Shown here: positions 4,831-32,179 of the stretch, piece by piece
Numbering within the stretch: position 1 is the first letter of the stretch
Layout of the letters: every line of letters starts with the position of its first letter
Origin: Candidatus Eiseniibacteriota bacterium
GTDB lineage: Bacteria > Eisenbacteria > RBG-16-71-46 > CAIMUX01 > VGJL01
DNA: 64,000 nucleotides
Direction: 5' to 3'
Assembly: GCA_963792585.1 (NCBI GenBank)
Contig: CAWBWI010000003.1
Location: 384,001-448,000 of the forward strand
Translations under genes and position numbers: made by a program
The notes under the pieces: model-generated
Seen by the model: only the letters and a program-made list of their open reading frames with translations
Told to the model about the DNA's origin: nothing
The model's database searches: none

Positions 4831-6092
4831 TCAGCCCCCGTACATCTCCATGATCTCCTTCTTGCCCTTGCCGAGGATTCCGTACTTCGCGCCGACCTTC
4901 TTGAAGGCCTCGAGCGCGATCTTCAGATCCTCGATCTCGTGCGCGGCGGAGATCTGTGTGCGGATGCGCGCCGGCTCCCTTCGGCACGACGGGGAAGAAG
5001 AAGCCGATCACGTAGACTCCCTCGGCGAAGAGGTCGCGGGCCATGTCGGAGGCGAGCTTCGCGTTGTAGAGCATGACCGGAACGATCGGGCTGTCACCGG
5101 CCTTGAGATCGAATCCCGCCTCGGTGAGTCCCTTGCGCCAGTACACGGTGTTCTTCTCGAGCTTGTCGCGCCGCTCGGTGCTGGCAGAGATGAGGTCGAT
5201 GACTTTGATCGCCCCGTTGACGATCACCGGCGGCATCGTGTTGGAGAAGAGATAGGGACGCGCCTTCTGGCGACAGAGTTCGACGATTTCGCGCCGGCCG
5301 CTCACGCAGCCGCCGGAGGCGCCGCCGAGCGCCTTGCCGAGCGTGGTCGTGATGATGTCGATCTTGCCCACGACGCCGCAATGCTCCTGCGTCCCGCGTC
5401 CGGTCTTGCCCATGAAGCCGCTCGCGTGCGAGTCGTCGAGGAAGATCATGGCGTCGTAGCGCTCGGCCAGCTGCGACGATCTTGTCGAGGGGGGCGATAT
5501 CGCCGTCCATCGAGAAGACGCCGTCGGTGATGATCAGGCGGATCCGCGCATCCTGGTGCTCCTGCAGCTTCTCCTCGAGGTGACCCATGTCGGAGTGCTT
5601 GTAGGTGTCCCGCCGCGTCTTGCGCTTCTGCTCACAGAGCGTGATGCCGTCGATGATGGAAGCGTGGACGAGACGATCGGAGATCATCACGTCCTGATCG
5701 TTCAGCACCGCCTCGAAGACGCCGGCGTTCGCGTCCATGCAGGAAGGGAAGAGAACCGTGTCTTCGGTGCCGAGGAACGCAGTCAGCTTCTGCTCGAGCG
5801 TGCGGTGGATATCCTGGGTGCCACAGATGAATCTCACCGATGACATCCCGTAGCCGCGCGTGTCGAGACCCTCGTGGGCCGCTTTGATCACGTCGGGGTG
5901 GCTGGATAGCCCCAGGTAGTTGTTCGCGCAGAGGTTGATCACCCTCTTCGGCGCCGAACCGCGCGGGAACTCGACTTCGATGTGGGAAGCTTGAGGGGAG
6001 TGGATGAACCGCTCCTCCTTGAGGAGTCCCTGATCCTTGATATCCGCCAACTCGGTCTGGAGCGAACCCCGGACCTTCTCGCTGATCGCCAT
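4831..6092 (-). pseudogene. kbl: Glycine C-acetyltransferase (2-amino-3-ketobutyrate CoA ligase) split by two apparent +1 frameshifts (about 5473 and 4973); real decay or sequencing error
   Basis: NLCANNYLGL, SVRFICGT and TDGVFSMDG in one frame; DDSHASG and TLGKALGG (PLP lysine) in a second; ARIRTQISAAH to stop 4831 in a third. Confidence 0.85.
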
Positions 6093-19880: not shown

Positions 19881-19909
19881 TTGACGGCCCCCCGGGATTT
19901 CTCCAGAAT
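19881..19909 (+). promoter_or_regulatory. Putative sigma70 promoter for the tRNA-enzyme operon
   Basis: TTGACG (19881-86), 17-nt spacer, CAGAAT (19904-09), about 90 nt upstream of the tRNA. Confidence 0.55.
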
Positions 19910-20001
19910 TGAATGGCGGGATTGAGACGTCTCTCGTGCGTCGTGGGAGTCAAGGAACCGCGACCCGCTTCGATCCCCCGATTCAGGTGCGTGATTTTTG
20001 T

Positions 20002-20307
20002 GCGTCCGTAGCTCAATCGGAAAGAGAAGTCCCACATACGACGGCCCGAGCACGGTGACGCGGACTGAGAAGCGAGGATATGTCGGTAATGCCTTCTGAC
20101 GTCCGGGTCTGGGGGCAGGAGGAGAGCCGGAACCTCTCTTCCCGACGGATCCCCGGTATTCCCTTTCCTGCTTCGCCTGCCTTCAGTATCGGCGCCACCT
20201 TTCTGAAGGCACGCATGTCACGTGTGAATGCCTCTCGTCGTGGGAAGCTCAAGAGCACCGGCCTTATAATCCGGAGACTGCGGGTTCGAGCCCCGTCGGA
20301 CGCACCA
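20002..20307 (+). tRNA. tRNA with anticodon UAU (reads AUA) interrupted by a ~229-nt structured insertion in the D-loop
   Basis: Acceptor GCGTCCG (20002-08) pairs 7/7 with CGGACGC (20297-303), then A73 and an encoded CCA. D-stem GCTC (20011-14)/GAGC (20253-56). Anticodon arm CCGGC-CTTATAA-TCCGG, TAT at 20265-67. T-arm GCGGG-TTCGAGC-CCCGT. Confidence 0.85.
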
Positions 20308-20357
20308 CCCTACACCGATTCATCCACCCCGAGGTCGCCGATGGAGGAGAGTCTCTC

Positions 20358-21422
20358 GTGAAACGACCGTCCACTCGCCAGGAGACTCTGGAGCGGGACG
20401 GCGCGCGGGAGAGAATCCCCGCGGGCGTGGATCCCTCGACGCGTCTCGTCGATCTGTCGCCCTACTACGGACACCTGGAGTGCTTTCAGGCTCTCCGTCC
20501 ACTCCTGGTGAAGACGAATCGCTTCACGTATGCGCCCAGCTACCCGCCGAACGAGCGGATGCAGAACACGTGGCTTTCGATCGCACTGGAAGGAATCGCG
20601 ACGCTTGCCGCGCATCGCACCGGGGAGGTCTGGGAGGATCTCGCGATCGTCGGCACGGGCAACGGCCTCGACGCCGTGGGGATCTCCCGAATCGTCCAGC
20701 CGAGGTCGATCATCGCCTCCGATATCCACCCGATCGCACTACAAGCGGCACGATGGAACATCGCCAACTATGTTGCGGAGGATTGCCGGGTCGCGGTTGT
20801 ACAAAGCGATCTCTTCGATGGATATCCGCCCGGGGCCGCATTCGACCTCATCTATGAGAATCTCCCGAACATCCCGGACGAGAAGGAGCTATTCGACGGG
20901 GTCCGCAGCGCGAGCTGTTTCGCGCCACGCGCCCAGCGGGTCGCCACGACGTTCGACCGGCATCTCCTGACCCTCCACCACGATTTTCTCATCCAAGCGC
21001 ACACTCGTCTCCGCGACTCCGGTTGGATCGTGGGTGTGATCGGAGGACGGATCCCGGTGCAGACGATTCACGAGCTGTTTGCGGACGCCGGGTATCGGTC
21101 CACGGTCGCCGCCTTCGGCCTCAAGATCCAGAGCGAGGGCGATGTGGTTCTGCCCGCCTATGCCGCAGCAGAGCAAGAGACCGGCGTCTCCTTCGTCTAT
21201 TACCATCCGCTCGAGGCGTGTCTTGCGATCGTGCGTGAGCTGTCGCAGCCGGAGGATCTTGCCGCGCGCGCGGAATACGCGGGACTGCTCACGGAACGAC
21301 TTCGGCCCCTCCAGATTCCGTCGACCGAAGCCGTACGCCTCCACGCAGGAGGAGCGGCCGTTTGCCACACGGTCTATGTCATGGCGGCTCAGCGAATCTG
21401 TGGTGGTCCCGCGAATGGGTGA
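20358..21422 (+). CDS. Class I SAM-dependent methyltransferase, PrmC/HemK-like
   Basis: IVGTGNGLDA (motif I), ASDIH, QSDLF, DLIYENLPNIP (NPPY-like position); GGAGGAG RBS and GTG start. Confidence 0.8.
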   Translation: MKRPSTRQETLERDGARERIPAGVDPSTRLVDLSPYYGHLECFQALRPLLVKTNRFTYAPSYPPNERMQNTWLSIALEGIATLAAHRTGEVWEDLAIVGTGNGLDAVGISRIVQPRSIIASDIHPIALQAARWNIANYVAEDCRVAVVQSDLFDGYPPGAAFDLIYENLPNIPDEKELFDGVRSASCFAPRAQRVATTFDRHLLTLHHDFLIQAHTRLRDSGWIVGVIGGRIPVQTIHELFADAGYRSTVAAFGLKIQSEGDVVLPAYAAAEQETGVSFVYYHPLEACLAIVRELSQPEDLAARAEYAGLLTERLRPLQIPSTEAVRLHAGGAAVCHTVYVMAAQRICGGPANG

Positions 21423-22182
21423 AGCCGACTACTTCAGGGAAGCCTCCGTCATCGATGCGATGACGGCGGAGCATCGGATTCTGTGGCGAACCCTCTTCGT
21501 GGCCTGTGGGCCGCACATCCGACCCGGCATGCGGGTTCTGGATTTCGGTTGCGGCAACGGTGGGATGCTCGCCTATCTCATGCTTGGGGACGGGAAGAAG
21601 TGGCCCGGGTGTCACTGCTCCCTTGGGATGGGGATCGATCGTCCCGAGCTGAACGCTGTGCTGGCGATGGCCGGCGACCGGCTTGGCCGGGAGTTGCCCG
21701 TCGTGTTCACTTCCGCTTCTCCCCGCTCGTTCCCTGGCCAATTCGATCTCGCCCTTTCGCACGAGGTCATCTACCTCCTCTCGGACCTCGCCGAGACGTT
21801 CCAAGGGTTGCGCGCCGCGTTGAGGCCGGGCGGCGTGATCGCCCTGGCGACGGGATGCCACAGCGAGAACCTCCTCTATCCAAGATGGACGGAAGCTCTT
21901 GCGCGGGTGGGGGTGTGTGCCCACCCGTACGGGATCCCGGACTACGTTCGGGCGCTCCGCGATGCCGGCTTCGAGGATGTCGGCAGTGCCAGCATGCGGA
22001 TGGAGGTCGATGACTACGAGGAATGGCTAGAGGTCCGGGGAGACCCTGAGCCGAATCCCGAGTGGTTCTCCACGTCCGAGGAAGAGCGGCGGTATTACAC
22101 GGAGTTCGGCAAGACGCTGATCACCGCTCGCCGGGCGTTGGCCGAGGAGCCGTCGACTGTACCCCCGCGGGAAGGGCCGTGA
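21415..22182 (+). CDS. Class I SAM-dependent methyltransferase
   Basis: VLDFGCGNGG, FDLALSHEVIY, LRPGG; overlaps the previous gene by 8 nt. Confidence 0.85.
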   Translation: MGEADYFREASVIDAMTAEHRILWRTLFVACGPHIRPGMRVLDFGCGNGGMLAYLMLGDGKKWPGCHCSLGMGIDRPELNAVLAMAGDRLGRELPVVFTSASPRSFPGQFDLALSHEVIYLLSDLAETFQGLRAALRPGGVIALATGCHSENLLYPRWTEALARVGVCAHPYGIPDYVRALRDAGFEDVGSASMRMEVDDYEEWLEVRGDPEPNPEWFSTSEEERRYYTEFGKTLITARRALAEEPSTVPPREGP

Positions 22183-24245
22183 CCGTCGCGCCCGACTATA
22201 TCCCCGAGACCATCGAGGCCAAGTGGCAACGGTTCTGGGAGGAGCGGGGGACGTTCCATGCGCATGCCTGCGGGGCGAGCAAGTTCTACTGCTACAATCC
22301 CGCGCCCTATGTCACCGGCACCCTTCATATGGGTCATGTCCGCAATTACACCTACGGTGATTTCCTCAGCAAGTTCCGGCGTCTTCACGGAGCGAACGTC
22401 CTCTACACGATCGGCTTCGACGCATTCGGCGTGCCCACAGAGGTGGCGGCCATGCGGAAACGGTTGGACCCGGCCGCCTGGACGGCCGGCTGCATCGGGG
22501 AGATGAAGAAGCAGCTTGTTCGAATGGGGTTTGGATTCGATTGGCGACGCTCCTTCTCCACGGCCGATGCGGACTACTACAAGTGGACCCAGTGGATCTT
22601 CATCGAGATGTTTCGGGAGGGCATCGTCTACGAACGGGAAGCGGAGACGCTCTGGTGTCCGCAGTGCGACATGGCCCTCGCCAAGTCGCTCACGGTCGAC
22701 GGCAGGTGCTTCCTGTGCAACATCGCAGTCGAGACGCGCGTCACAAGCCAGTGGTTCCTTCGCATCTCGCGCTATCTGGACCGTCTCAGGGATGATCTCG
22801 CCGAGGTCAGGGACCTCAACGGCCAGGCGCGTGCGGGACAGGAGAGTCTCCTCGCCTTCCGCAGCCTCTGGGGTGTCTGGTTGATCGAGCCGAAGACCGG
22901 GACCAAGGTTCTCGCCTGCATGGATTCTCCCGATGACTGGTCCAGGCATCTCGTGTTGGCGGTTCACCCTCAGGATTGGCCGACGCGACGGGCGCTCGCG
23001 GGGATCGCCGTCGAGCCGATCTCGGGCAGGTCCTTCGCAGTCGTCGTCGATCCTATGCTCGACTCGCTCTATCTGGATCAACCCGTGCTGAAGATTGTCC
23101 CGCGGGAGGGCGGAGCGCAGGCAATTGAACATGCGCCGGCGGATGGGATCTTCCCGCTCACGGTGAACGAACAGAAGGACTTCTCTGTTTCGCGCCAGCG
23201 ACTCTGGGGAACGCCCATCCCGATGGTCCGGTGTGAGACGTGCGGAGTCGTCCCGGTGGAGGCCGCGGATCTTCCCGTGCGGTTGCCGCGGATCGAAGCC
23301 GATGGCTCCGGACGGCTGCGGCGAACCGAACCCGGGTGGGACGTTCGCGCGTGCCCTTCATGCAAACGGCCGGCAATGCTCGATCCCCAGGTCATGGATT
23401 GCCACTTCGATGCGCTATGGCACTACTGGCGCCCCTGTGTTGGCTCCACGGCGGAGTTTCCTTTCGACTCGGACGAAGCCCGGTATTGGATGCCGGTCGA
23501 CCAGATCCAATTCGGCAGGGACACGATTCCGTTCCTCCTGACCCTGCGGCTGTTCACGAAGTTCCTGAAGGACCGCGGGCTCTCGGATTGCTCGGAGTTC
23601 GCCCGCGAGATGCTTGCGCACGGTCTGATCCTCATGGGCAATCGGAAGATGAGCAAGCACATCGGCAACGTCGTCGATCCGGAGCAAATGATCACCCGTT
23701 TCGGGGCGGACAGTCTTCGGTTCTATGTCCTCGCCAGGAGCGATCCCAGGAGCGATTATAGCTGGTCGGAGGCGAGCCTCGCGCGCTATCACGAGCTCTT
23801 GAAGCACTACTACGAGGATCTGGACCCTGAGACTTCGAGGGAGACAGCGGCGGCGGGAATGGAGGGATCGAAGACGGGATCCGCGGGGAAGTACCTGTCG
23901 ATCTTTCTCACAAAGGTGTTGCGCGAGGTGGAGGTACTGGAGTCGAGCGTTGAAAGTGGACGGTTCGACATCTACGCGCGGGCGGTTGCGCGAATCCTGG
24001 AAGCGCTTCATCTGTTCAAGGAGCGGTACTACACGCAGGCGGGATCGTGGGGGCGGGAAGCGTGGGGGAAGTGCGCGGAGCAGTCCATTCTCTACCTCGC
24101 CCCGATCGCGCCACACATCGCGGAGGAGTGCTGGGAGCGAAGCGGCCGAGCGCCGGGAGTCTTCGCGGGAGTGCGTTGGCCATCAGACGGCCCGATGGTC
24201 GTTCGAGATTTGGTGGAGGAAGCGAAGAGGCGGAGGCAGTCGTGA
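22179..24245 (+). CDS. Divergent leucyl-tRNA synthetase-like class Ia aminoacyl-tRNA synthetase (688 aa)
   Basis: HMGH and KMSKH signatures, GFDAFG, YYKWTQWIF, SRQRLWGTPIP, Zn-knuckle CxxC pairs, LAPIAPHIAEECW; shrunken CP1 region; GTGA overlap. Confidence 0.9.
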   Translation: MTVAPDYIPETIEAKWQRFWEERGTFHAHACGASKFYCYNPAPYVTGTLHMGHVRNYTYGDFLSKFRRLHGANVLYTIGFDAFGVPTEVAAMRKRLDPAAWTAGCIGEMKKQLVRMGFGFDWRRSFSTADADYYKWTQWIFIEMFREGIVYEREAETLWCPQCDMALAKSLTVDGRCFLCNIAVETRVTSQWFLRISRYLDRLRDDLAEVRDLNGQARAGQESLLAFRSLWGVWLIEPKTGTKVLACMDSPDDWSRHLVLAVHPQDWPTRRALAGIAVEPISGRSFAVVVDPMLDSLYLDQPVLKIVPREGGAQAIEHAPADGIFPLTVNEQKDFSVSRQRLWGTPIPMVRCETCGVVPVEAADLPVRLPRIEADGSGRLRRTEPGWDVRACPSCKRPAMLDPQVMDCHFDALWHYWRPCVGSTAEFPFDSDEARYWMPVDQIQFGRDTIPFLLTLRLFTKFLKDRGLSDCSEFAREMLAHGLILMGNRKMSKHIGNVVDPEQMITRFGADSLRFYVLARSDPRSDYSWSEASLARYHELLKHYYEDLDPETSRETAAAGMEGSKTGSAGKYLSIFLTKVLREVEVLESSVESGRFDIYARAVARILEALHLFKERYYTQAGSWGREAWGKCAEQSILYLAPIAPHIAEECWERSGRAPGVFAGVRWPSDGPMVVRDLVEEAKRRRQS

Positions 24246-25042
24246 ATCGGGAAGTCATGTGCGACCACTTGGTTCGGTTGATCGACGATCTGGAACGGTG
24301 CTCCGGCGGGGCGCCGCGCGACCTGCTCCGCGCCGCGTTGTGCATCGAGCACGTCGTGATGTCCGATCTACTGCCTCCGGAGGAGGAGGACGCCGTCTTT
24401 GCGGACCCGAGGATCGCCGTGCGGGCGTCCGGTTGTCAGAGGATCTTCTCGGATCTCGAGAGCACCATCGAGCGGAGCATGGCCGAGGTTGTGCGGCTCG
24501 GCGGGGCCGAAACGACTTGGGCCCGGGAGAACGTGAGCCAGCACTACATTGCGCGTTACGAGTACCTTTCCCAGTGCGAGATCGAGCTGGCGCGGATGGG
24601 ACCGGAGGATCGTGTCCTCTTCATCGGGAGCGGGTACCTGCCGATCACGGCGTTCGAATACGTCCGTCAGTCCGGCTGCAAGGTTGACTGCGCCGACTTC
24701 GTCCCGGAAGCGATCGATTGCGCCCGAAAGATCACGGAACGGATCGGGATGACGGAGCGTGTGCGGTTCTTCCAGACGCGAGGGGAGCAGCACGATCCCT
24801 CCCCATACGACGTCATCCTCGTAGGTGTGCTTGCACTGCCGAAACGGGCGATCCTGTCCCACCTGGATGCGGGGGCGAAGGGCGGATGCCGTGTGCTGTG
24901 TCGGACCACCTACGGGCTGCGGCAACTCGTCTACCAGCAAGCGTCCTACGAGGTGCGGAGCCTCCGTCGACTCGTTCCGGGAGAACGAAGCGTGGCCCGT
25001 GGGGAGCGGGTCATTTCTGCGGAGCTCTTGAGGGCTTCTTGA
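24242..25042 (+). CDS. Nicotianamine synthase-like SAM-dependent aminocarboxypropyl transferase
   Basis: Y..RY..L...E followed by VLFIGSGYLPIT (NAS-family FIGSGPLPLT), and RTTYGLRQLVY; GTGA overlap with the synthetase gene. Confidence 0.75.
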   Translation: MNREVMCDHLVRLIDDLERCSGGAPRDLLRAALCIEHVVMSDLLPPEEEDAVFADPRIAVRASGCQRIFSDLESTIERSMAEVVRLGGAETTWARENVSQHYIARYEYLSQCEIELARMGPEDRVLFIGSGYLPITAFEYVRQSGCKVDCADFVPEAIDCARKITERIGMTERVRFFQTRGEQHDPSPYDVILVGVLALPKRAILSHLDAGAKGGCRVLCRTTYGLRQLVYQQASYEVRSLRRLVPGERSVARGERVISAELLRAS

Positions 25043-25306
25043 GACCCGGTTGGGAGGGTCGGGGCCCGATTCGCGAGCAAGCGCAGGTCGCATCGAGAAC
25101 CGAGATCGCCGGTGGAGGTTTGAAACACTGAGGATATCCCAGCCAGTTGAGCGTATAATTGAGTGCGACGGATCCTCCGGGCTCATCTGCTGAGAGGATC
25201 TGGTGCGACGGCGATCGACGGGGGGACCGCACCGCAGTTCTCCGCCGGTTCGGTCCCGACCTCGTTCGACCGCCGGTTCCATGTCACACGAAAGGAGGGA
25301 GTCCTC

Positions 25307-26029
25307 ATGATGAGGAAGGTCGCCCTGCTCCTTGTTCTGAGTTCCATTTTCGGAGGCGGCGCGCTCGCCGCCAATCCCAGCCTGAGTGCGGGAGGTGGCG
25401 GCAGCCCGAACGTCCTCAACTCCGGCCGAGAAGTTATCTGGAGTGAGCCGCCTGACCTCGAAGGTCTGATCGCCTCGTCGGAAGTCATCGGGCAATTCGC
25501 CCTTGAGACGGAAATCGCCAACGACTTCTATATCTCCTGGGATACCTGTATCGGCGGCGCTCGCTGGTGGGGCGGTTATTACAACAACAACGGCTGTAGC
25601 GACATTGGCATCGCGACAAACTGGAACCTCCGATTCTACGATGACGGCGGCTGCGTTCCGTTGACGACTCTTTCCGAGACGGTGGGCGCCTTCGCAAACG
25701 AGACTTTCATTTACTGCCAGGGCGGGTTCTACCCGGTCTTCCAGTACGAAGCCTACACATCATACGTCTACATCACGGCGAACACCCTGTACTGGTTCGG
25801 CGCACAGGCATCCGATCACGCGTTTCCGCCGCAGGTGGGCCGTATCGCCTCCGCATGGGTCGTCGGCTGCGACACGGTGTTCAAGAGTGCCTACTTCTCG
25901 TACCCCGACTGGACGCCCGGCATCGACGTGTTCGGTGTCGCCTTCGATGCCAGCCAGGAGTTCGAGAACTGGTGCATAGTTCCGACCGTGACGACCACGT
26001 GGGGCGCCGTGAAGGGGCTCTACCGGTAG
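25307..26029 (+). CDS. Secreted tandem paralog 1 (ANDF/WWGGY domain, C-terminal TTWGAVKGLYR)
   Basis: AGGAGG RBS, signal peptide, family motifs; single ATA codon at 25976. Confidence 0.9.
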   Translation: MMRKVALLLVLSSIFGGGALAANPSLSAGGGGSPNVLNSGREVIWSEPPDLEGLIASSEVIGQFALETEIANDFYISWDTCIGGARWWGGYYNNNGCSDIGIATNWNLRFYDDGGCVPLTTLSETVGAFANETFIYCQGGFYPVFQYEAYTSYVYITANTLYWFGAQASDHAFPPQVGRIASAWVVGCDTVFKSAYFSYPDWTPGIDVFGVAFDASQEFENWCIVPTVTTTWGAVKGLYR

Positions 26030-26333
26030 GTCCGGCGAATGGGGAGGTCCGCTGTGGCGCAGCGGGCTTCAGGTGGCACACAAAGAGTTTGGTGGCGTTG
26101 GGGCGCTCCCGTCGATGCGGCGGGGGCGCTTCTTGCATCCGGCCGCGGCGGCCCTCGGTGGACTCCATCCCCGGGACGGTAGATAATCGACGGCAACAAT
26201 TCCCGACGGCTCTTGGGTCGGGGGTGCAGGCGGCTCGGCGGTCAAACGAGGACGGGCACCGCACCGTGACGCCCGCCTGGTCCCGCGCGTGATCGTCGTT
26301 GTGTGCTGTGACAAACCACAGGAGGGAGTCCTC

Positions 26334-27047
26334 ATGATGATACAGATCGCCCTTGTCCTGAGTCTGGTCGTTGCCAGCGGAGCGCTTGCCATCAACCCAT
26401 CCCTGAGCGGGGGCGGTGGCGGTACGAATGTTCTGAACTCCGGTCGCGAAGTCGTCTGGAGCGAGCCACCGAACCTCGACGGTTTGATCGGGTCGTCGGA
26501 GGTTATTTGGGAGTTCTATGTCGTGACGGAACTTGCCAACGATTTCTTCCTCACTACGAACCACGGCCTCGACATCGCTCGCTGGTGGGGTGGCTATTTT
26601 TACAACAGCAGTTGCGGCGATGTCGGTGTCGCCACAAATTGGAACCTAACATTCTACGATGATGTCGGTTGCATACCGGAACATGTGCTTTACGAGCGTA
26701 TGGGCGTCGATGCGAACGAGACTTTCGTCTATTGCCAAAGCGACGTCTACCCGATCTTCAGCTACGAGGTCGCCGATCTGAACTTCACAGCTCAGGCGAA
26801 TACCCGATACTGGTTCGTCGCGCAGGCAGCTGACCATACGTTCCCGCCCCAGGTAGGTCGCGTCGCTTCCGCCGGAGTCGTCGGCTGCGAGACCGTCTTC
26901 AGAGGGTCCTACTTCTCGTACAACTACTGGACTCCCGTTATCGATGTGTTCGGCGTGGCGTTTGATGCCAGCCAGGAGTTCGAGGAGTATCACATAGTCC
27001 CTACTGAAAGGACCACGTGGGGCGCCGTGAAGGAGCTCTACCGGTAG
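26334..27047 (+). CDS. Secreted tandem paralog 2 (most divergent copy)
   Basis: Same family; ends TTWGAVKELYR; ATA codons at 26340, 26673 and 26994. Confidence 0.9.
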   Translation: MMIQIALVLSLVVASGALAINPSLSGGGGGTNVLNSGREVVWSEPPNLDGLIGSSEVIWEFYVVTELANDFFLTTNHGLDIARWWGGYFYNSSCGDVGVATNWNLTFYDDVGCIPEHVLYERMGVDANETFVYCQSDVYPIFSYEVADLNFTAQANTRYWFVAQAADHTFPPQVGRVASAGVVGCETVFRGSYFSYNYWTPVIDVFGVAFDASQEFEEYHIVPTERTTWGAVKELYR

Positions 27048-27350
27048 GTCCGGCGAATGGAGAGGTCCGCTGTGGCGCAGCGGGCTTCAGGTGGCACACA
27101 AAGAGTTTGGTGGCGATGAGGCGCTTCCGTCGTTGCGGCGGGGCGCTTCTCACGTCCAGTCGCCACAGGCTTGGGTGGACATCGGCCTCGCAGGAGCAGA
27201 TACTCGTAGGCGGCGAATCCCTGCGGCTCTCGAGCCGGGGGATCCGACGGACTGCTGGTCGAGGGAGCCCGCCACCCACCGACCGTCGGTCCGGCCATGG
27301 ACCTGTTCGTCGTTGAGTCTCGTGACAGCCGAAAGGAGGGAATCCTCGCT

Positions 27351-28079
27351 ATGAGGAAGGTCGCCCTTGTCCTTGTCCTGAGCTGCGTCGCCGGGGGCGG
27401 CGCGCTGGCCGTCAACCCGAGCATCATGGCCGGCGGAGAGGGCACGCAGAACGTCCTAGACTCCGGTCGAGATCCCGTCTGGAGTGAGCCGCCCGATCTA
27501 GAGGGTCTGATCGCTTCGTCGGAAGTTATCGGGCAGGTCGGCCTCGAGACGGAAATCGCAAATGACTTCTACATCGACCATGACGAGTACATCAGTATCG
27601 CCCGCTGGTGGGGCGGATACTACAACAACAACGGCTGCAGTGACATCGGGTACGGCACGAACTGGAATCTGCGCCTCTACGATGACTTGGGCTGTGTTCC
27701 GGGGTCAGTGCTTTCCGAGACTCTAGGGCTGTCGGTGATCGAGGCCTTCGTATACTGCCAGGCTGGCCTCTACCCGGTCTTCGAATACTGGGCATGCGTC
27801 GAGTTCTGGGTCGCGGGGAATACATTGTACTGGTTCGGTGCACAAGCATCCGATCACACGTTCCCACCGCAGGTCGGTCGCGTGGCCTCTGCCGGAGTCG
27901 TCGGCTGCGACTCCGTATTCAAGAGCGCCTACTTCTCGTATCCGGATTGGACGCCCGGTATCGACGTCTTCGGGGTCGCATTCGACGCGAGTCAGGAATT
28001 CGGCAATGGTATCTGCATAGACGGACCTGTCCCTAATCAGCGGACCACGTGGGGCGCCGTGAAGGGGCTCTACCGGTAG
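27351..28079 (+). CDS. Secreted tandem paralog 3
   Basis: Same family; ATA at 28017. Confidence 0.9.
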   Translation: MRKVALVLVLSCVAGGGALAVNPSIMAGGEGTQNVLDSGRDPVWSEPPDLEGLIASSEVIGQVGLETEIANDFYIDHDEYISIARWWGGYYNNNGCSDIGYGTNWNLRLYDDLGCVPGSVLSETLGLSVIEAFVYCQAGLYPVFEYWACVEFWVAGNTLYWFGAQASDHTFPPQVGRVASAGVVGCDSVFKSAYFSYPDWTPGIDVFGVAFDASQEFGNGICIDGPVPNQRTTWGAVKGLYR

Positions 28080-28381
28080 GTCCGGCGAATGGGGAGGTCC
28101 GCTGTGGCGCAGCGGGCTTCAGGTGGCACACAAAGAGTTTGGTGGCGATGAGGCGCTTCCGCCGTTGCGGCGGGGGCGCTTCTTGCGTCCAGCCGCACAG
28201 GCTTCGGTGGACGTCGGCCTCACAGGAGCAGATACTCGTAGGCGGCGAATCAAAGCGGTCACTGAGCCGGGGGATCCGACGGACTGCTGGTCGAAGGAGC
28301 CCGCCTCCCACCAACCGTCGGTCCGGCCATGGATCTGTTCGCCGTTAGTCTCGTGACAGCCGAAAGGAGGGAATCCTCGCC

Positions 28382-29098
28382 ATGAGGAAGGTCGCCCTTG
28401 TCCTTGTCCTGAGCTTCGTCGCCACAGGCGGCGCGCTCGCCATCAACCCGGGCATCATGGCTGGCGGGGGGGGCACGCAGAACGTCCTCAACTCCAGCCG
28501 AGATGTTGTCTGGAGTGAGCCGCCCGACCTCGAAGGTCTGATTGCCTCGTCAGAAGTCATCGGGCAATTGGCTCTCGAGACGGAAATCGCAAACGATTTC
28601 TACCTTCCCTGGGACTACTGGATCTGCGTCGCCCGCTGGTGGGGTGGTTACTACAACAACAACGGCTGCGGCGATGTCGGCATCGCGACGAACTGGAACG
28701 TTCGGTTCTACGATGACGGCGGCTGCGTGCCTCTTACCCTGCTGAACGAGACGCTCGGCGCGTTCGCGAACGAGACCAGCGTCTATTGCCAGGATGGCTT
28801 CTACCCGATCTTTAGGTACGAAGTTGACGTCAGCATGCCGATCACCGGCAACACCCTGTACTGGTTCGGCGCGCAGGCTGCCGACCATGCGTTCCCGCCG
28901 CAGTGCGGCCGCGTTGCCTCCGGCTCCGTCGTCGGTTGCGACACGGTGTTCAAGAGTGCCTACTTCTCGTACTCCGACTGGACGCCCGGCATCGACGTGT
29001 TCGGTGTTGCGTTCGACGCCAGCCAGGAGTTCGTGATCGGGTGCATAGTTCCAACCGTCACGACCACGTGGGGCGCCGTGAAGGGGCTCTACCGGTAG
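28382..29098 (+). CDS. Secreted tandem paralog 4
   Basis: Same family; ATA at 29045. Confidence 0.9.
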   Translation: MRKVALVLVLSFVATGGALAINPGIMAGGGGTQNVLNSSRDVVWSEPPDLEGLIASSEVIGQLALETEIANDFYLPWDYWICVARWWGGYYNNNGCGDVGIATNWNVRFYDDGGCVPLTLLNETLGAFANETSVYCQDGFYPIFRYEVDVSMPITGNTLYWFGAQAADHAFPPQCGRVASGSVVGCDTVFKSAYFSYSDWTPGIDVFGVAFDASQEFVIGCIVPTVTTTWGAVKGLYR

Positions 29099-29406
29099 GT
29101 CCGGCGAATAGAGAGGTCCGCTGTGGCGCAGCGGGCTTCAGGTGGCACATAAAGAGTTTGGTGGCGATGGGGCGCTCCCGTCGATGCGGCGGGGGCGCTT
29201 CCTGCATCCGCCGCGCAGGACGACGTTTGACCCCCCGTCCCAATGAGCGGATACTCATAGGCGGCAGATCCTACCCGGCATGTGTGCCGACTGGATCTGA
29301 CGGTCCTGCGATTGTGGTGAGACCCGCCGCGTGGGCAGCAGCCAGTCCGGTCCGGGACTTGTTCGCACGTGAGTTCCGCAACAAGCGAAAGGAGGGAATC
29401 CTCGCC

Positions 29407-30129
29407 ATGAGGAAGGTCGCCCTTGTCCTTGCGCTGAGTTTCGTCGCCGCAGGCGGTGCACTCGCCGTCAATCCGAGCATCATGGCCGGTGGGGGGGGCA
29501 CGCAGAACGTCCTCAACTCCGGCCGTGACGTGGTCTGGGGTGAGCCGCCCGATCTCGATGGCCTCATCGCCTCGTCAGAAGTCATCGGACAACTCGCTCT
29601 CGAGACGGAAATCGCAAATGACTTCTGGGTTGATCATGACGGCTCCATCGATTGTGCCTGCTGGTGGGGAGGGTACTACAATAACAACGGCTGCGGTGAC
29701 ATCGGTATCGCTACGAACTGGAACCTCCGGTTCTACGATGACGGTGGCTGCGTTCCGCTGTCGGTCCTCGCCGAGACGGTGGGCGCCTTCGCTTACGAGA
29801 CCAGTGTGTACTGTCAGGGTGGGCTCTACCCGGTCTTCCAGTACGAAGCTGGCGTCGACTTCCAGATCACGGGGAACACATTGTACTGGTTCGGCGCGCA
29901 GGCATCCGACCACACGTTTCCGCCGCAGGTAGGCCGTATCGCCTCCGCAGGGGTCGTCGGCTGCGACTCCGTGTTCAAGAGTGCCTACTTCTCGTACCCC
30001 GACTGGACGCCTGGTATCGACGTATTCGGTGTCGCCTTCGATGCGAGTCAGGAGTTTAGGGAATACTGCATACTACCTGTCGGCACGCAGCGGACCACGT
30101 GGGGCGCCGTGAAGGGGCTCTACCGGTAG
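29407..30129 (+). CDS. Secreted tandem paralog 5
   Basis: Same family; ATA at 30070. Confidence 0.9.
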   Translation: MRKVALVLALSFVAAGGALAVNPSIMAGGGGTQNVLNSGRDVVWGEPPDLDGLIASSEVIGQLALETEIANDFWVDHDGSIDCACWWGGYYNNNGCGDIGIATNWNLRFYDDGGCVPLSVLAETVGAFAYETSVYCQGGLYPVFQYEAGVDFQITGNTLYWFGAQASDHTFPPQVGRIASAGVVGCDSVFKSAYFSYPDWTPGIDVFGVAFDASQEFREYCILPVGTQRTTWGAVKGLYR

Positions 30130-30432
30130 GTCCGGCGAATGGGGAGGTCCGCTGTGGCGCAGCGGGCTTCAGGTGGCACACAGAGAGTTTGGTGGCGATG
30201 AGGCGCTTCCGCCGTTGCGGCGGGGGCGCTTCTCACGTCCGGCCGCAGCAGGCTTCGGTGGACATCGGCCTCACAGGAGCAGATACTCGTAGGCGGCGAA
30301 TCCCTGCGGCTCTCGGGCCGGGGGATCCGACGGACTGCTGGTCGAGGAGCCCGCCTCCCACCGACCCTCGGTCCGGCCATGGACCTGCTCGTCGTTGGGT
30401 CTCGTGACAGCCGAAAGGAGGGAATCCTCGCC

Positions 30433-31158
30433 ATGAGGAAGGTCGCCCTTGTCCTTGTCCTGAGCTTCGTCGCCACAGGCGGCGCGCTCGCCATCAACCC
30501 GAGCCTGAGTGCGGGGGGTGGCGGCAGCCCGAACGTCCTCAACTCCGGCCGATACGTCATCTGGAGTGAGCCGCCTGACCTCGAAGGTCTGATCGCCTCG
30601 TCGGAAGTCATCGGGCAATTCGCCCTCGAGACGGAAATCGCCAACGACTTCTACGTCCCCTGGGATACCTGTGTTGGTCTCGCTCGCTGGTGGGGAGGCT
30701 ACTACAATAACGCCGGTTGCGGTGACATCGGTGTCGCTACGAACTGGAACCTCCGATTCTACGATGACGGTGGCTGCGTTCCGTTGTCGATCCTGTCCGA
30801 GACGGTGGGGGTCTTCGCGAACGAGACCTTCATCTACTGCCAGGGCGGGTTCTATCCGGTCTACCAGTACGAAACCGCCGCAGTATACGTCGCCGTCACG
30901 GCGAACACGCTGTACTGGTTCGGCGCGCAGGCATCGGATCACGCGTTTCCGCCGCAGGTGGGCCGTATCGCTTCTGCATCGGTCGTCGGTTGCGACACGG
31001 TGTTCAAGAGTGCCTACTTCTCGTATCCCGACTGGACGCCTGGCATCGACGTGTTCGGTGTCGCCTTCGATGCCAGTCAGGAATTCGAGAACTACAATTG
31101 CGGCATAGTTCCAACTCAGAAGACCACGTGGGGCGCCGTGAAGGGGCTCTACCGGTAG
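30433..31158 (+). CDS. Secreted tandem paralog 6
   Basis: Same family; ATA at 31105. Confidence 0.9.
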   Translation: MRKVALVLVLSFVATGGALAINPSLSAGGGGSPNVLNSGRYVIWSEPPDLEGLIASSEVIGQFALETEIANDFYVPWDTCVGLARWWGGYYNNAGCGDIGVATNWNLRFYDDGGCVPLSILSETVGVFANETFIYCQGGFYPVYQYETAAVYVAVTANTLYWFGAQASDHAFPPQVGRIASASVVGCDTVFKSAYFSYPDWTPGIDVFGVAFDASQEFENYNCGIVPTQKTTWGAVKGLYR

Positions 31159-31462
31159 GTCGGGCGAATGGAGAGGTCCGCTGTGGCGCAGCGGACTTCA
31201 GGTGGCACACAGAGAGTTTGGTGGCGTTGGGGCGTCCCTGTCGTTGTGACGGGGGCGCTTCATACGTCCAGCCGCCACAGGCTTCGTTGGACATCGGCCA
31301 CACAGGAGCAGATACTCGTGGGCGGCGAATCCCTGCGGCTCTCGGGCCGGGGGATCCGACGGACTGCTGGTCGAGGGAGTCCGCCTCCCACCGACCGTCG
31401 GTCCGGCCATGGACCTGCTCGTCGTTGGGTCTCGTGACAGCCGAAAGGAGGGAATCCTCGCC

Positions 31463-32179
31463 ATGAGGAAGGTCGCCCTTGTCCTTGTCCTGAGCTTCGT
31501 CGCCACAGGCGGCGCGCTCGCCGTCAACCCGAGCCTCATGGCCGGTGGGGGGGGCACGCAGAACGTCCTCAACTCCGGCCGAGATACCTACTGGAGTGAG
31601 CCGCCCGATCTGGAGGGTCTGATCGCGTCCTCGGAAGTCATCGGGCAGTTCGGCCTCGAGACGGAAATCGCAAACGACTTCTATCTCACCCAGAACGCCA
31701 CTGTCTGGGCCGTCTGGTGGGGTGGGTACTACAACAACAATGGTTGTGGCGACATCGGTGTTGCAACGAACTGGAATCTTCGGTACTACGACGACGGTGG
31801 CTGTGTTCCGCTGAACACGGTTTCCGAAGGTCTCGGCGCGTATGCGAACGAGAACTTCGTCTATTGTCAGGGCGGGTTCTACCCGATCTTCCGGTACACG
31901 GCCGACGTCTGCTGCGCGGTTCTCGCGAATACGCTGTACTGGTTCGGCGCGCAGGCAGCCGATCACGCGTTCCCGCCTCAGGTCGGCCGCGTAGCCTCTG
32001 CCGGAGTCGTCGGCTGCGACTCCGTGTTCAAGAGCGCCTACTTCTCGTACCCCGACTGGACGCCCGGCATCGACGTGTTCGGCGTTGCCTTCGATGCGAG
32101 TCAGGAGTTTGAACTGGGCATATGCGGGATCGCGACCCAGAAGACCACGTGGGGCGCCGTGAAGGGGCTCTACCGGTAG
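31463..32179 (+). CDS. Secreted tandem paralog 7
   Basis: Same family; ATA at 32120. Confidence 0.9.
   Translation: MRKVALVLVLSFVATGGALAVNPSLMAGGGGTQNVLNSGRDTYWSEPPDLEGLIASSEVIGQFGLETEIANDFYLTQNATVWAVWWGGYYNNNGCGDIGVATNWNLRYYDDGGCVPLNTVSEGLGAYANENFVYCQGGFYPIFRYTADVCCAVLANTLYWFGAQAADHAFPPQVGRVASAGVVGCDSVFKSAYFSYPDWTPGIDVFGVAFDASQEFELGICGIATQKTTWGAVKGLYR

Follow-up and report, generated by a model that had tools for sequence, protein, structure and literature searches.

A giant tRNA(UAU) with a structured D-loop domain, a linked leucyl-tRNA synthetase paralog and AUA codons in secreted proteins: a candidate code-expansion cassette in Candidatus Eiseniibacteriota

The giant tRNA gene and its operon

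The window (the whole 64,000-nucleotide stretch of Candidatus Eiseniibacteriota DNA analysed here, from a genome, G000, that is 84% complete) contains a tRNA gene of ~306 nt, about four times the usual size. It is the first gene of an operon in which it is followed by four overlapping open reading frames encoding, in this order, two methyltransferases (MT1 and MT2), a paralog of leucyl-tRNA synthetase (LeuRSx) and a nicotianamine-synthase-like (NAS-like) protein, with seven tandem genes for secreted proteins lying downstream (Table 1). The initial annotation, made from the letters of the sequence, had dealt with the tRNA and its insertion; the UAU anticodon, the operon of synthetase and modifying enzymes, and the ATA codons in the secreted genes go beyond it and form the main finding.

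Table 1. Features of the giant tRNA locus, in window coordinates.
Feature	Position	Strand	Description
Sigma-70-like promoter (predicted)	19881..19909	+	TTGACG-17-CAGAAT; consensus match, 1 found versus 0.2 expected
Giant tRNA gene	20002..20307	+	
tRNA 5' part	20002..20026	+	Acceptor 5' strand, D-stem 5' strand GCTC, complete D-loop AATCGGAAA, then GAG
D-loop domain	20027..20255	+	229 nt; register ambiguous by 5 nt
tRNA 3' part	20256..20307	+	Anticodon arm, short variable loop, T arm, acceptor 3' strand, A73, encoded CCA
MT1	20358..21422	+	Class I SAM methyltransferase, MmtN-like family; syntenic orthologs in G005, L032 and L033
MT2	21415..22182	+	Class I SAM methyltransferase (Methyltransf_23); syntenic in G005 and L032; close family found
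LeuRSx	22179..24245	+	Retains HMGH and KMSKH; rebuilt leucine pocket, degenerate editing domain, no C-terminal domain
NAS-like gene	24242..25042	+	Nicotianamine-synthase-like, predicted aminocarboxypropyl transferase; PF03059 above cutoff
Seven tandem secreted proteins	25163..32179	+	C-terminal TTWGxVKxLYR tail ('WG-tail'); putative targets, linked to the tRNA by correlation
Linker ATA codons	25976, 26994, 28017, 29045, 30070, 31105, 32120	+	One per gene, 3-6 codons past the DASQEF core end

All five parts of the cassette occur in the same order in the window, in a second genome (G005, assembly 94% complete) and in contig L032, and a further contig, L033, ends after the tRNA and MT1. Both contigs come from a metagenome scan in which only these two of 34 loci were close; a locus returned by a genome scan (L066) is a duplicate of that of G005 and was counted once, the homologous tRNA loci thus numbering four (window, L032, L033 and G005). 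The cassette was not found in four relatives (G001-G004), and among 206 genomes of the phylum the MT1 gene as first downstream open reading frame, the NAS-like profile and the tRNA 3'-half pattern each gave strong matches solely in G000 and G005.

The two parts of the tRNA, an AAGAG repeat (20022-26 and 20251-55) and the CCA end all lie where the initial annotation had placed them, and its view that the halves form a complete cloverleaf was borne out: once 20027-20255 are deleted in silico, ARAGORN folds the remaining 77 nt into a cloverleaf with a C31.U39 mismatch and calls it tRNA-Ile(TAT). Every hallmark of RF00005 could be identified in the window gene, i.e., acceptor, D, anticodon and T arms, G18G19, TTCG and CCA. 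The departures from the tRNA norm are the D-loop insert, C31.U39 in the window gene and, in the G005 gene, C33 in place of U33, the last two being odd in an elongator tRNA. The warning that standard finders may miss or mis-call such a gene also proved justified, as ARAGORN reports nothing on the intact gene and, with intron search, a wrong Leu(CAA), and Rfam recovers RF00005 at 20238-20304 only, i.e., in the 3' part (35 bits).

The anticodon is UAU (20265-67) within the loop CUUAUAA, and U34-A35-U36-A37-A38 is present at all four loci. Between the window and G005 genes the tRNA stems covary (GCTC/GAGC versus GTTC/GAAC; CCGG/CCGG versus GTGGA/TCCAC). For either gene the nearest genomic tRNA body is that of Arg(UCU), which makes it probable that the giant tRNA arose by a C35 to A change.

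Upstream of the tRNA, TTGAC and a -10-like box also align in L032, L033 and G005. An intergenic stretch preceding the tRNA promoter (5435-5530 in both L032 and L033) is conserved, and the DNA beyond it, further upstream, differs between these two contigs. In the window, the leader at 19935-19956 is a near copy of the 3' end of the insert at 20232-20253 (CTCTCGT..CGTGGGA..TCAAG), and CTCTCGTG is seen again at the start of MT1 (20350-20360). A pairing of the leader with the 5' junction, spotted by eye, was no better than in shuffled sequences at any of the four loci.

LeuRSx falls outside the canonical bacterial LeuRS, with 391 bits against leuS_bact where the cutoff is 548. A canonical LeuRS is encoded elsewhere in G000, and in the G005 assembly, which is 94% complete, the paralog alone scores and no canonical LeuRS was found above the cutoff. 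Its predicted structure (pLDDT 78, with the pocket and KMSK region at low-to-moderate confidence; a single-sequence model had reached pLDDT 34) has LeuRS as its closest fold (TMq 0.73). In an alignment of 16 LeuRSx rows, one of them a duplicate and one partial, all 16 end before the C-terminal domain and are devoid of the TTRPDT and VPAHDQRD editing motifs. In normal LeuRS the C-terminal domain grips the tRNA elbow, beside the position occupied by the insert. In LeuRSx the hydrophobic positions of the leucine pocket are replaced by invariant Pro, Ala, His, His and Asp (M40, F41, F501, Y507, E540 and H545 of the Thermus thermophilus enzyme align to P, A, H, H, D and F), a new Cys and a new Arg appear, and C408, H409, H415, R447 and D448 are invariant in 14 of 14 sequences.

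As a single protein, MT1 gives weak HemK-type matches and no PDB match; its family profile, by contrast, has 7vvv as best PDB match (E 1.1e-10, positions 65-240), which indicates homology to the MmtN fold if 7vvv is taken as MmtN, the entry 7VVV being named once in the accessible part of PMC9135737. The region of MmtN that holds its Met-binding residues Glu127, Arg132 and Glu250 aligns poorly with the MT1 profile. No ATA codon occurs in the cassette genes of the window or of G005, and four occur in those of L032.

Contigs of size 72097, 93194 and 8519 recur in three homolog lists and five more in two, and this recurrence of same-sized contigs suggests further copies of the cassette beyond the four loci. 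Since one relative of MT2 (P0217, 43% identity) is labelled Candidatus Rokubacteria, the cassette may also reach another phylum. A sequence-only RNA model, applied to 54 sources, recovered no locus other than the four already known, the tRNA pattern had 0 matches in viral contigs, and phage records gave no match; the LeuRSx profile matched 14 loci in viral contigs at 29-43% identity, which are taken as ordinary synthetases.

Pairs of NAS-like and MT1 genes free of the tRNA and the synthetase were found at six other genome loci (L067-L073). At these loci, and at L043 and L055, the NAS-like and MmtN-like genes (fused in L068) belong to CPR bacteria, Pelagibius and Rhodospirillales and have as neighbours PLP-dependent enzymes, HAD hydrolases, and LysE/EamA exporters or betaine-type binding proteins/transporters. 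Judging from gene content, they may form an undescribed small-molecule pathway, and these tRNA-free contexts would point to the synthesis of a small amino-acid derivative.

Structure and fate of the D-loop domain

The D-loop domain is laid out as an irregular basal stem, a branch, two adjacent hairpins and a side hairpin (20178-20211). Of the pairings originally proposed for the insert, GAG/CTC, TCCCAC/GTGGGA and TGCCTTCAG/CTGAAGGCA recur in the cloverleaf-constrained fold, while GACG/CGTC is shifted in register (ACGA/TCGT). This constrained fold lies 1.1 kcal/mol above the free minimum in the window gene and equals the free minimum in G005; when the window gene is folded without constraint, the ensemble gives the D, anticodon and T stems pair probabilities of just 0.16-0.31. 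The whole 306 nt have a fold z-score of -1.33, 11 of 100 shuffles being equally good, and the insert alone reaches -2.19 in the window and -2.51, -2.52 and -2.86 in the homologs (100 shuffles each). The loops of the two adjacent hairpins, GUCCGG (20101-06) and CCGGAAC (20127-33), show no change in three loci and have 5-bp complementarity, and they may form a kissing-loop pseudoknot; UCCGG is also present in the anticodon stem.

At all four loci the insert occupies the same site, between the complete D-loop and the D-stem 3' strand, with AAG on both flanks. It measures 229, 231 and 231 nt in the window, L032 and L033, which can be aligned with one another, and 174 nt in G005, where it is non-alignable and folds as a long branched stem. 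Because this arrangement is conserved at four loci, chance is ruled out. The search for covariation in homologs that the initial annotation had called for gave 93.7% of cells paired and four two-sided changes in three sequences; this covariation is thin, because two of the three rows are near-identical and the structure was derived from one of them. In the RNA-library contigs, among the rows listed, eight changes inside the insert fall at unpaired and seven at paired positions, six of the latter seven keeping the pair and one turning G-C into A-U on both sides.

It is extremely improbable that the insert is a MITE or another mobile fragment that left a 5-bp target duplication in a dead or dying tRNA. 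AAGAG does flank the insert and its ends pair, but it is single-copy in G000 (best other match E 0.049 over 38 nt), its site and structure are kept at four loci with two different insert sequences, and neither phage records nor viral contigs match. A multicopy MITE with no conserved structure and no transcript was what the initial annotation had named as fatal to its claim; what was found is one copy, a conserved structure and contigs in RNA libraries. The giant tRNA is a real, conserved and structurally constrained feature within a larger, undescribed cassette. No clear tag ORF could be identified in the insert, of which two frames have stops and one is open, and as a guide for target mRNAs the insert gave no signal, with 17 of 18 duplex z-scores between -1.1 and 1.8 and one at -2.9.

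Two fates had been envisaged for the insert, i.e., an intron removed by an unfamiliar route or an extra domain retained on a giant tRNA; the second is favoured and the first disfavoured. The accompanying statement that it has neither group II boundaries nor a correctly placed group I core was upheld by boundary, motif and Rfam tests. At a group I intron the exon ends in U and the intron in G, and a group II intron has GUGYG...AY ends, with domain V before its 3' end; these end rules were applied to every register of the repeat. No register at the four loci gives both the exon-U and the intron-G ends, and simple group I core motifs are absent from the insert. GUGYG...AY ends were likewise found in no register of the four loci, and Rfam intron families, including those of group II, gave no match up to E 10 in the window and up to E 5 in the window and G005 loci. 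In the archaeal BHB motif, as described in the accessible part of PMC3978253, a central helix of 4 bp is accompanied by 3-nt junction bulges. Here, as judged by eye, the junction forms a 3-bp helix, not a conserved 4-bp one, and its internal loops vary from locus to locus; the splicing endonuclease PF01974 was found in 0 of 5 genomes (of which G000 is 84% complete), with control matches in four archaea.

Twenty public runs from 12 studies, 14 of them recorded as RNA, contain 0.21-0.36 of the words of an 821-nt stretch. In the four of these 20 runs that were examined at contig level (four studies; DNA may be present in such libraries), RNA-library contigs cross the 3' junction unspliced in all four and the 5' junction in one, and no spliced joint is listed. 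A spliced product could go unseen, because the 5' exon is as short as 25 nt and libraries capture mature tRNAs poorly. Retention of the insert in the mature RNA is favoured and partly shown.

In runs X6, X8 and X12 coverage is confined to the tRNA gene, in X2 very deep short unitigs lie inside the insert, and in X8 one record ends in adapter at 20305; this coverage was set aside as evidence because neither level nor strand nor ends can be read from contigs and such libraries may contain DNA. Runs X6, X8 and X12 also show loose ends at 20252, where the match of three contigs begins at AGAGC and the sequence before it is not D-arm-like; these contigs may be further D-loop-expanded tRNAs with other inserts.

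That the cassette recodes after its D-loop domain has first been removed, either as a protein-spliced intron (by a nuclease and RtcB) or by an excision without ligation like that of rRNA intervening sequences, appears quite unlikely. Clean excision would give a normal tRNA, because at all four loci the D-loop is already complete on the 5' side and a copy of AAG stands at either end, and the short 5' exon would hide the joint in contigs. RtcB is encoded in all five genomes, but it is as common in the cassette-free ones; group I, group II and BHB features are missing, the 3' junction is bridged unspliced in each run, and the loss of the LeuRS C-terminal domain would be simpler to explain if the elbow domain were retained.

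AUA codons in the WG-tail genes

A C-terminal TTWGxxKxLYR tail is present on ~80 genes across G000, many of them secreted, and by its sequence looks like a lineage-specific sorting signal. NCBIfam models gave no match for four WG-tail proteins, and the Atlas look-alikes of the target family are hypothetical proteins of Eiseniibacteriota and related phyla. In the seven genes downstream of the cassette, the linker ATAs sit at the core/linker boundary in differing contexts. A linker ATA is also present in four of four paralogs at C6:728885-733410, in the single gene found beside and downstream of the L032 cassette, and in both genes upstream of the G005 cassette, which belong to a different core family.

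ATA is rare in G000, with 1368 of 70098 Ile codons (2%). In a range of 3-65 codons before the WG, picked after inspecting G000, ATA was found in 17 of the 80 called genes of G000 (26 of 109 in the raw six-frame set) and in 9 of 70 genes of G005 (7 of 49, and 2 of 21 in a later-fetched batch), as opposed to 2 of 93 in the cassette-free relatives (0/31 in G004, 0/30 in G003, 2/26 in G002 and 0/6 in G001). These gene counts are samples, the total WG-tail matches being 97 in G005, 76 in G004, 44 in G003 and 28 in G002, and the held-out G005 batch is weak by itself (2/21 genes; 2/61 versus 2/111 Ile codons). Measured among Ile codons near the tail versus upstream of it, ATA accounts for 24/290 versus 17/705 with the cassette and for 2/194 versus 11/505 in its absence, i.e., in cassette genomes it increases 3.4-fold towards the tail, and no such increase is seen in the cassette-free ones. 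Twelve other A-ending codons have ratios of 0.6-1.4 near the tail in cassette genomes, and GC3 is unmoved. Linkers of FlgD-like-tail proteins show no ATA excess (3/173 versus 44/2476).

Among G000 paralogs of less than 90% identity, 29 of 40 aligned ATA-ATA pairs lie at the linker site. On the family tree the ATA label requires five changes, and none of 200 bootstrap trees groups its bearers as a single clade; ATA is lacking in close paralogs that share 78% identity. Paralogs of one family make up 11 of the 17 linker-ATA genes of G000, and one gain of ATA together with losses, or gene conversion, may account for the pattern. The codon test covers two genomes and one contig, all kin.

A global reassignment of AUA was rejected: in G004 orthologs (n = 73, 618 kb) ATA aligns to I in 45%, V in 25% and L in 15% of cases, the comparison value for ATC being 62% I, so that most AUA are read as Ile. 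TilS scores above cutoff in all five genomes, and a tRNA(CAT) assigned by eye to the Ile2 type lies at C1:365371; the giant tRNA is therefore not needed for ordinary AUA reading. No cis signal that would mark the linker AUA apart from others was found. Neither a shifted or four-base anticodon reading a stop (UUA in the window, CUA in G005) nor a +1 frameshift into TAG is supported; in the six-frame set the base after ATA is G in 16 cases, C in 13, T in 4 and A in 2, and the G005 targets include ATA-C.

Two contig starts of G000 were excluded from the codon counts because they look like chimeric joins or contamination. The first 100,000 positions of C3, the contig of the window, have 69-71% GC and different-looking genes, and within this first ~100 kb lies an ordinary 77-nt tRNA-Ile(TAT) of its own (c75042-75118); the start of C5 (1-40000) has 39-46% GC. 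Elsewhere in the genome, a second Arg(ACG) call (C1:1316925-1317003) combines a foreign 5' half with a 3' half identical to that of the gene at 1352725, and resembles one end of an element that has integrated into that tRNA gene.

These codon data bear on two further explanations. In the first, which we consider unlikely, the pair delivers a standard amino acid, either as deliberate mistranslation of AUA, in the manner of ProRSx and tRNA-ProX, or as a conditional Ile supply that makes one AUA a translational switch, in the manner of bldA and TTA, and the SAM enzymes modify the tRNA or make an unrelated metabolite. A precedent exists in tRNA-ProX, whose genes, according to the accessible part of PMC10404621, are adjacent to that of their synthetase and share operons with unrelated enzymes; the spacing of the host ValRS motif GPDIIFF is echoed by PAPYVTG and GRDTIPF in LeuRSx, and NAS-like and MT1 genes occur together at the six loci free of tRNA and synthetase. 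However, ProRSx kept its amino acid and pocket, as far as the accessible part of PMC9437257 goes, whereas LeuRSx has acquired new invariant polar residues; moreover, AUA is already read by TilS and Ile2, a lone AUA near the C-terminus would make a poor switch, and all three SAM enzymes accompany the pair at the three complete loci.

In the second, which seems improbable, the RNA acts as a carrier off the ribosome: the amino acid that it receives from LeuRSx is tailored on the tRNA by the SAM enzymes or turned by them into a small metabolite, the domain bars the RNA from the ribosome, and the ATA pattern is an inherited coincidence or a side effect. The exporters, transporters and enzymes that neighbour NAS-like and MT1 genes elsewhere, as in small-molecule pathways, and C33 in the G005 tRNA fit this explanation, and synthetase paralogs with non-ribosomal roles are common according to the accessible part of PMC9437257. 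It is opposed by the conservation of UAU, A37 and A38 at all four loci despite changes in the stems, by the enrichment of the matching codon alone, at a single position, across two genera and several unrelated core families, and by the cassette itself, in which no acceptor or transferase gene was found at the annotated loci.

Proposed function and comparison with known systems

Built on the observed gene linkage, anticodon, synthetase remodelling and codon placement, the reading that we tentatively put first, with rather less than even confidence, is that programmed AUA codons receive a SAM-derived amino acid through the giant tRNA and its dedicated synthetase; charging, decoding and the nature of the residue are what this arrangement would imply. 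The RNA would keep its D-loop domain, and LeuRSx, having lost the elbow-gripping domain, would charge the giant RNA and not tRNA-Leu. The NAS-like enzyme and the methyltransferases may make the SAM-derived amino acid, aminocarboxypropylated and/or S- or N-methylated, either free or while bound to the tRNA; alternatively, one of the methyltransferases may act on the tRNA itself. At AUA the charged giant tRNA would compete with the lysidine-bearing tRNA-Ile2; stray insertion, we propose, is tolerated because AUA is rare enough, and genes that need the residue would keep AUA in the flexible linker before the sorting tail, where the residue could serve as an attachment, metal-binding or cleavage site. 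Methionine sulfonium residues promote backbone cleavage to homoserine lactone. Against this preferred reading stands the D-loop domain of 170-230 nt, which must go through the ribosome, and for which we know of no precedent beyond tmRNA.

Its most far-reaching form, which is doubtful, would be a 23rd genetically encoded amino acid, SAM-derived, entering at a programmed sense codon via an intact ~300-nt tRNA and furnishing a built-in linker site. The residue could be, for example, an S-methyl sulfonium or aminocarboxypropylated amino acid loaded by the LeuRS-derived synthetase, and would then provide, beside the C-terminal sorting tail, a point of cleavage, cross-linking or metal binding by which the core is released or attached.

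If recoding of this kind takes place, the natural genetic code would extend past selenocysteine and pyrrolysine, at a sense codon, to which stop-codon and genome-wide reassignment screens would be blind. A tRNA would be able to bear a domain of 170-230 nt in its D-loop, and genetic code expansion would gain a compact, probably orthogonal, five-gene module of tRNA, synthetase and biosynthesis. As candidate target peptides can be named, recoding is directly testable. Under the weaker readings there would still be a structured RNA missed or mis-called by ARAGORN and an undescribed family of LeuRS paralogs.

A review of tRNA identity lists atypical folds, and in its accessible part neither 'giant' nor 'large insertion' appears (PMC9976931). 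No published account of such a system was found in a literature search of mostly open-access papers, without supplements. Among the known tRNA introns, those of groups I and II occur in bacteria and plastids and include the group II intron in the D arm of plastid trnG-UCC. The present insertion is similar in lying in the D-arm region and in leaving a normal cloverleaf upon removal, and differs in that catalytic boundaries, an Rfam match, a 4-bp BHB helix and an endonuclease are all wanting and the junction is unspliced in RNA-library contigs. In tmRNA a tRNA-like domain is joined to an appendage of 200-300 nt that travels through the ribosome, and the molecule has no anticodon and carries a tag ORF; the giant tRNA shares the tRNA-like body with a large appendage, but it has an anticodon and no clear tag ORF, and a separate tmRNA is encoded in G000. 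Finally, bldA tRNA-Leu(UAA) is the only reader of TTA and is charged by the normal LeuRS, and it offers a parallel in that selected genes retain a rare codon linked to one particular tRNA.

Closer in single components are LeuRS-I of Sulfolobaceae and LeuRS2 of Halobacteria, LeuRS duplicates with disrupted editing or altered C-terminal domains; they still bind tRNA-Leu and leucine, and no dedicated tRNA or modifying operon is described for them in the accessible part of PMC9437257. The UAU anticodon for AUA is shared with tRNA-Ile(UAU) of Mycoplasma mobile, which is charged by IleRS and replaces TilS and the lysidine tRNA, as far as the accessible part of PMC3575796 tells. Here, in contrast, the body resembles that of Arg(UCU) and a separate synthetase lies adjacent, and a TilS-replacing role is ruled out by the presence of tilS and an Ile2-type CAT tRNA. 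Streptomyces ProRSx and tRNA-ProX likewise consist of a duplicated synthetase by a tRNA with the anticodon of another amino acid, and both that pair and the present one would compete with a normal tRNA at a sense codon. ProRSx keeps its Pro specificity and tRNA-ProX a normal size, with no programmed target sites named in the accessible parts of PMC10404621 and PMC9437257, whereas a rebuilt pocket, a giant D-loop and positioned candidate codons are found here.

In two genomes and one contig, a linked tRNA, synthetase and modifying enzymes are found together with a codon at a fixed site, a combination that, as far as linkage and codon pattern go, would be expected of a natural code-expansion cassette. 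In the pyrrolysine cassette pylTSBCD, a non-canonical tRNA is joined to its own synthetase and to SAM-dependent enzymes, the distribution is patchy, and the few targets have the codon at a fixed place. By analogy of layout, i.e., an odd tRNA followed by its own synthetase and SAM-dependent enzymes, patchy spread and limited fixed-site targets, the present system resembles a pyrrolysine-style recoding cassette acting on a sense codon. It is not the pyrrolysine system proper, since the anticodon is UAU, not CUA, and the cassette proteins match LeuRS, NAS and methyltransferase models only; UAG, a class II synthetase and PylBCD there stand against AUA, a class I LeuRS-derived synthetase, MmtN-like, NAS-like and methyltransferase genes and a tRNA of 250-309 nt here.
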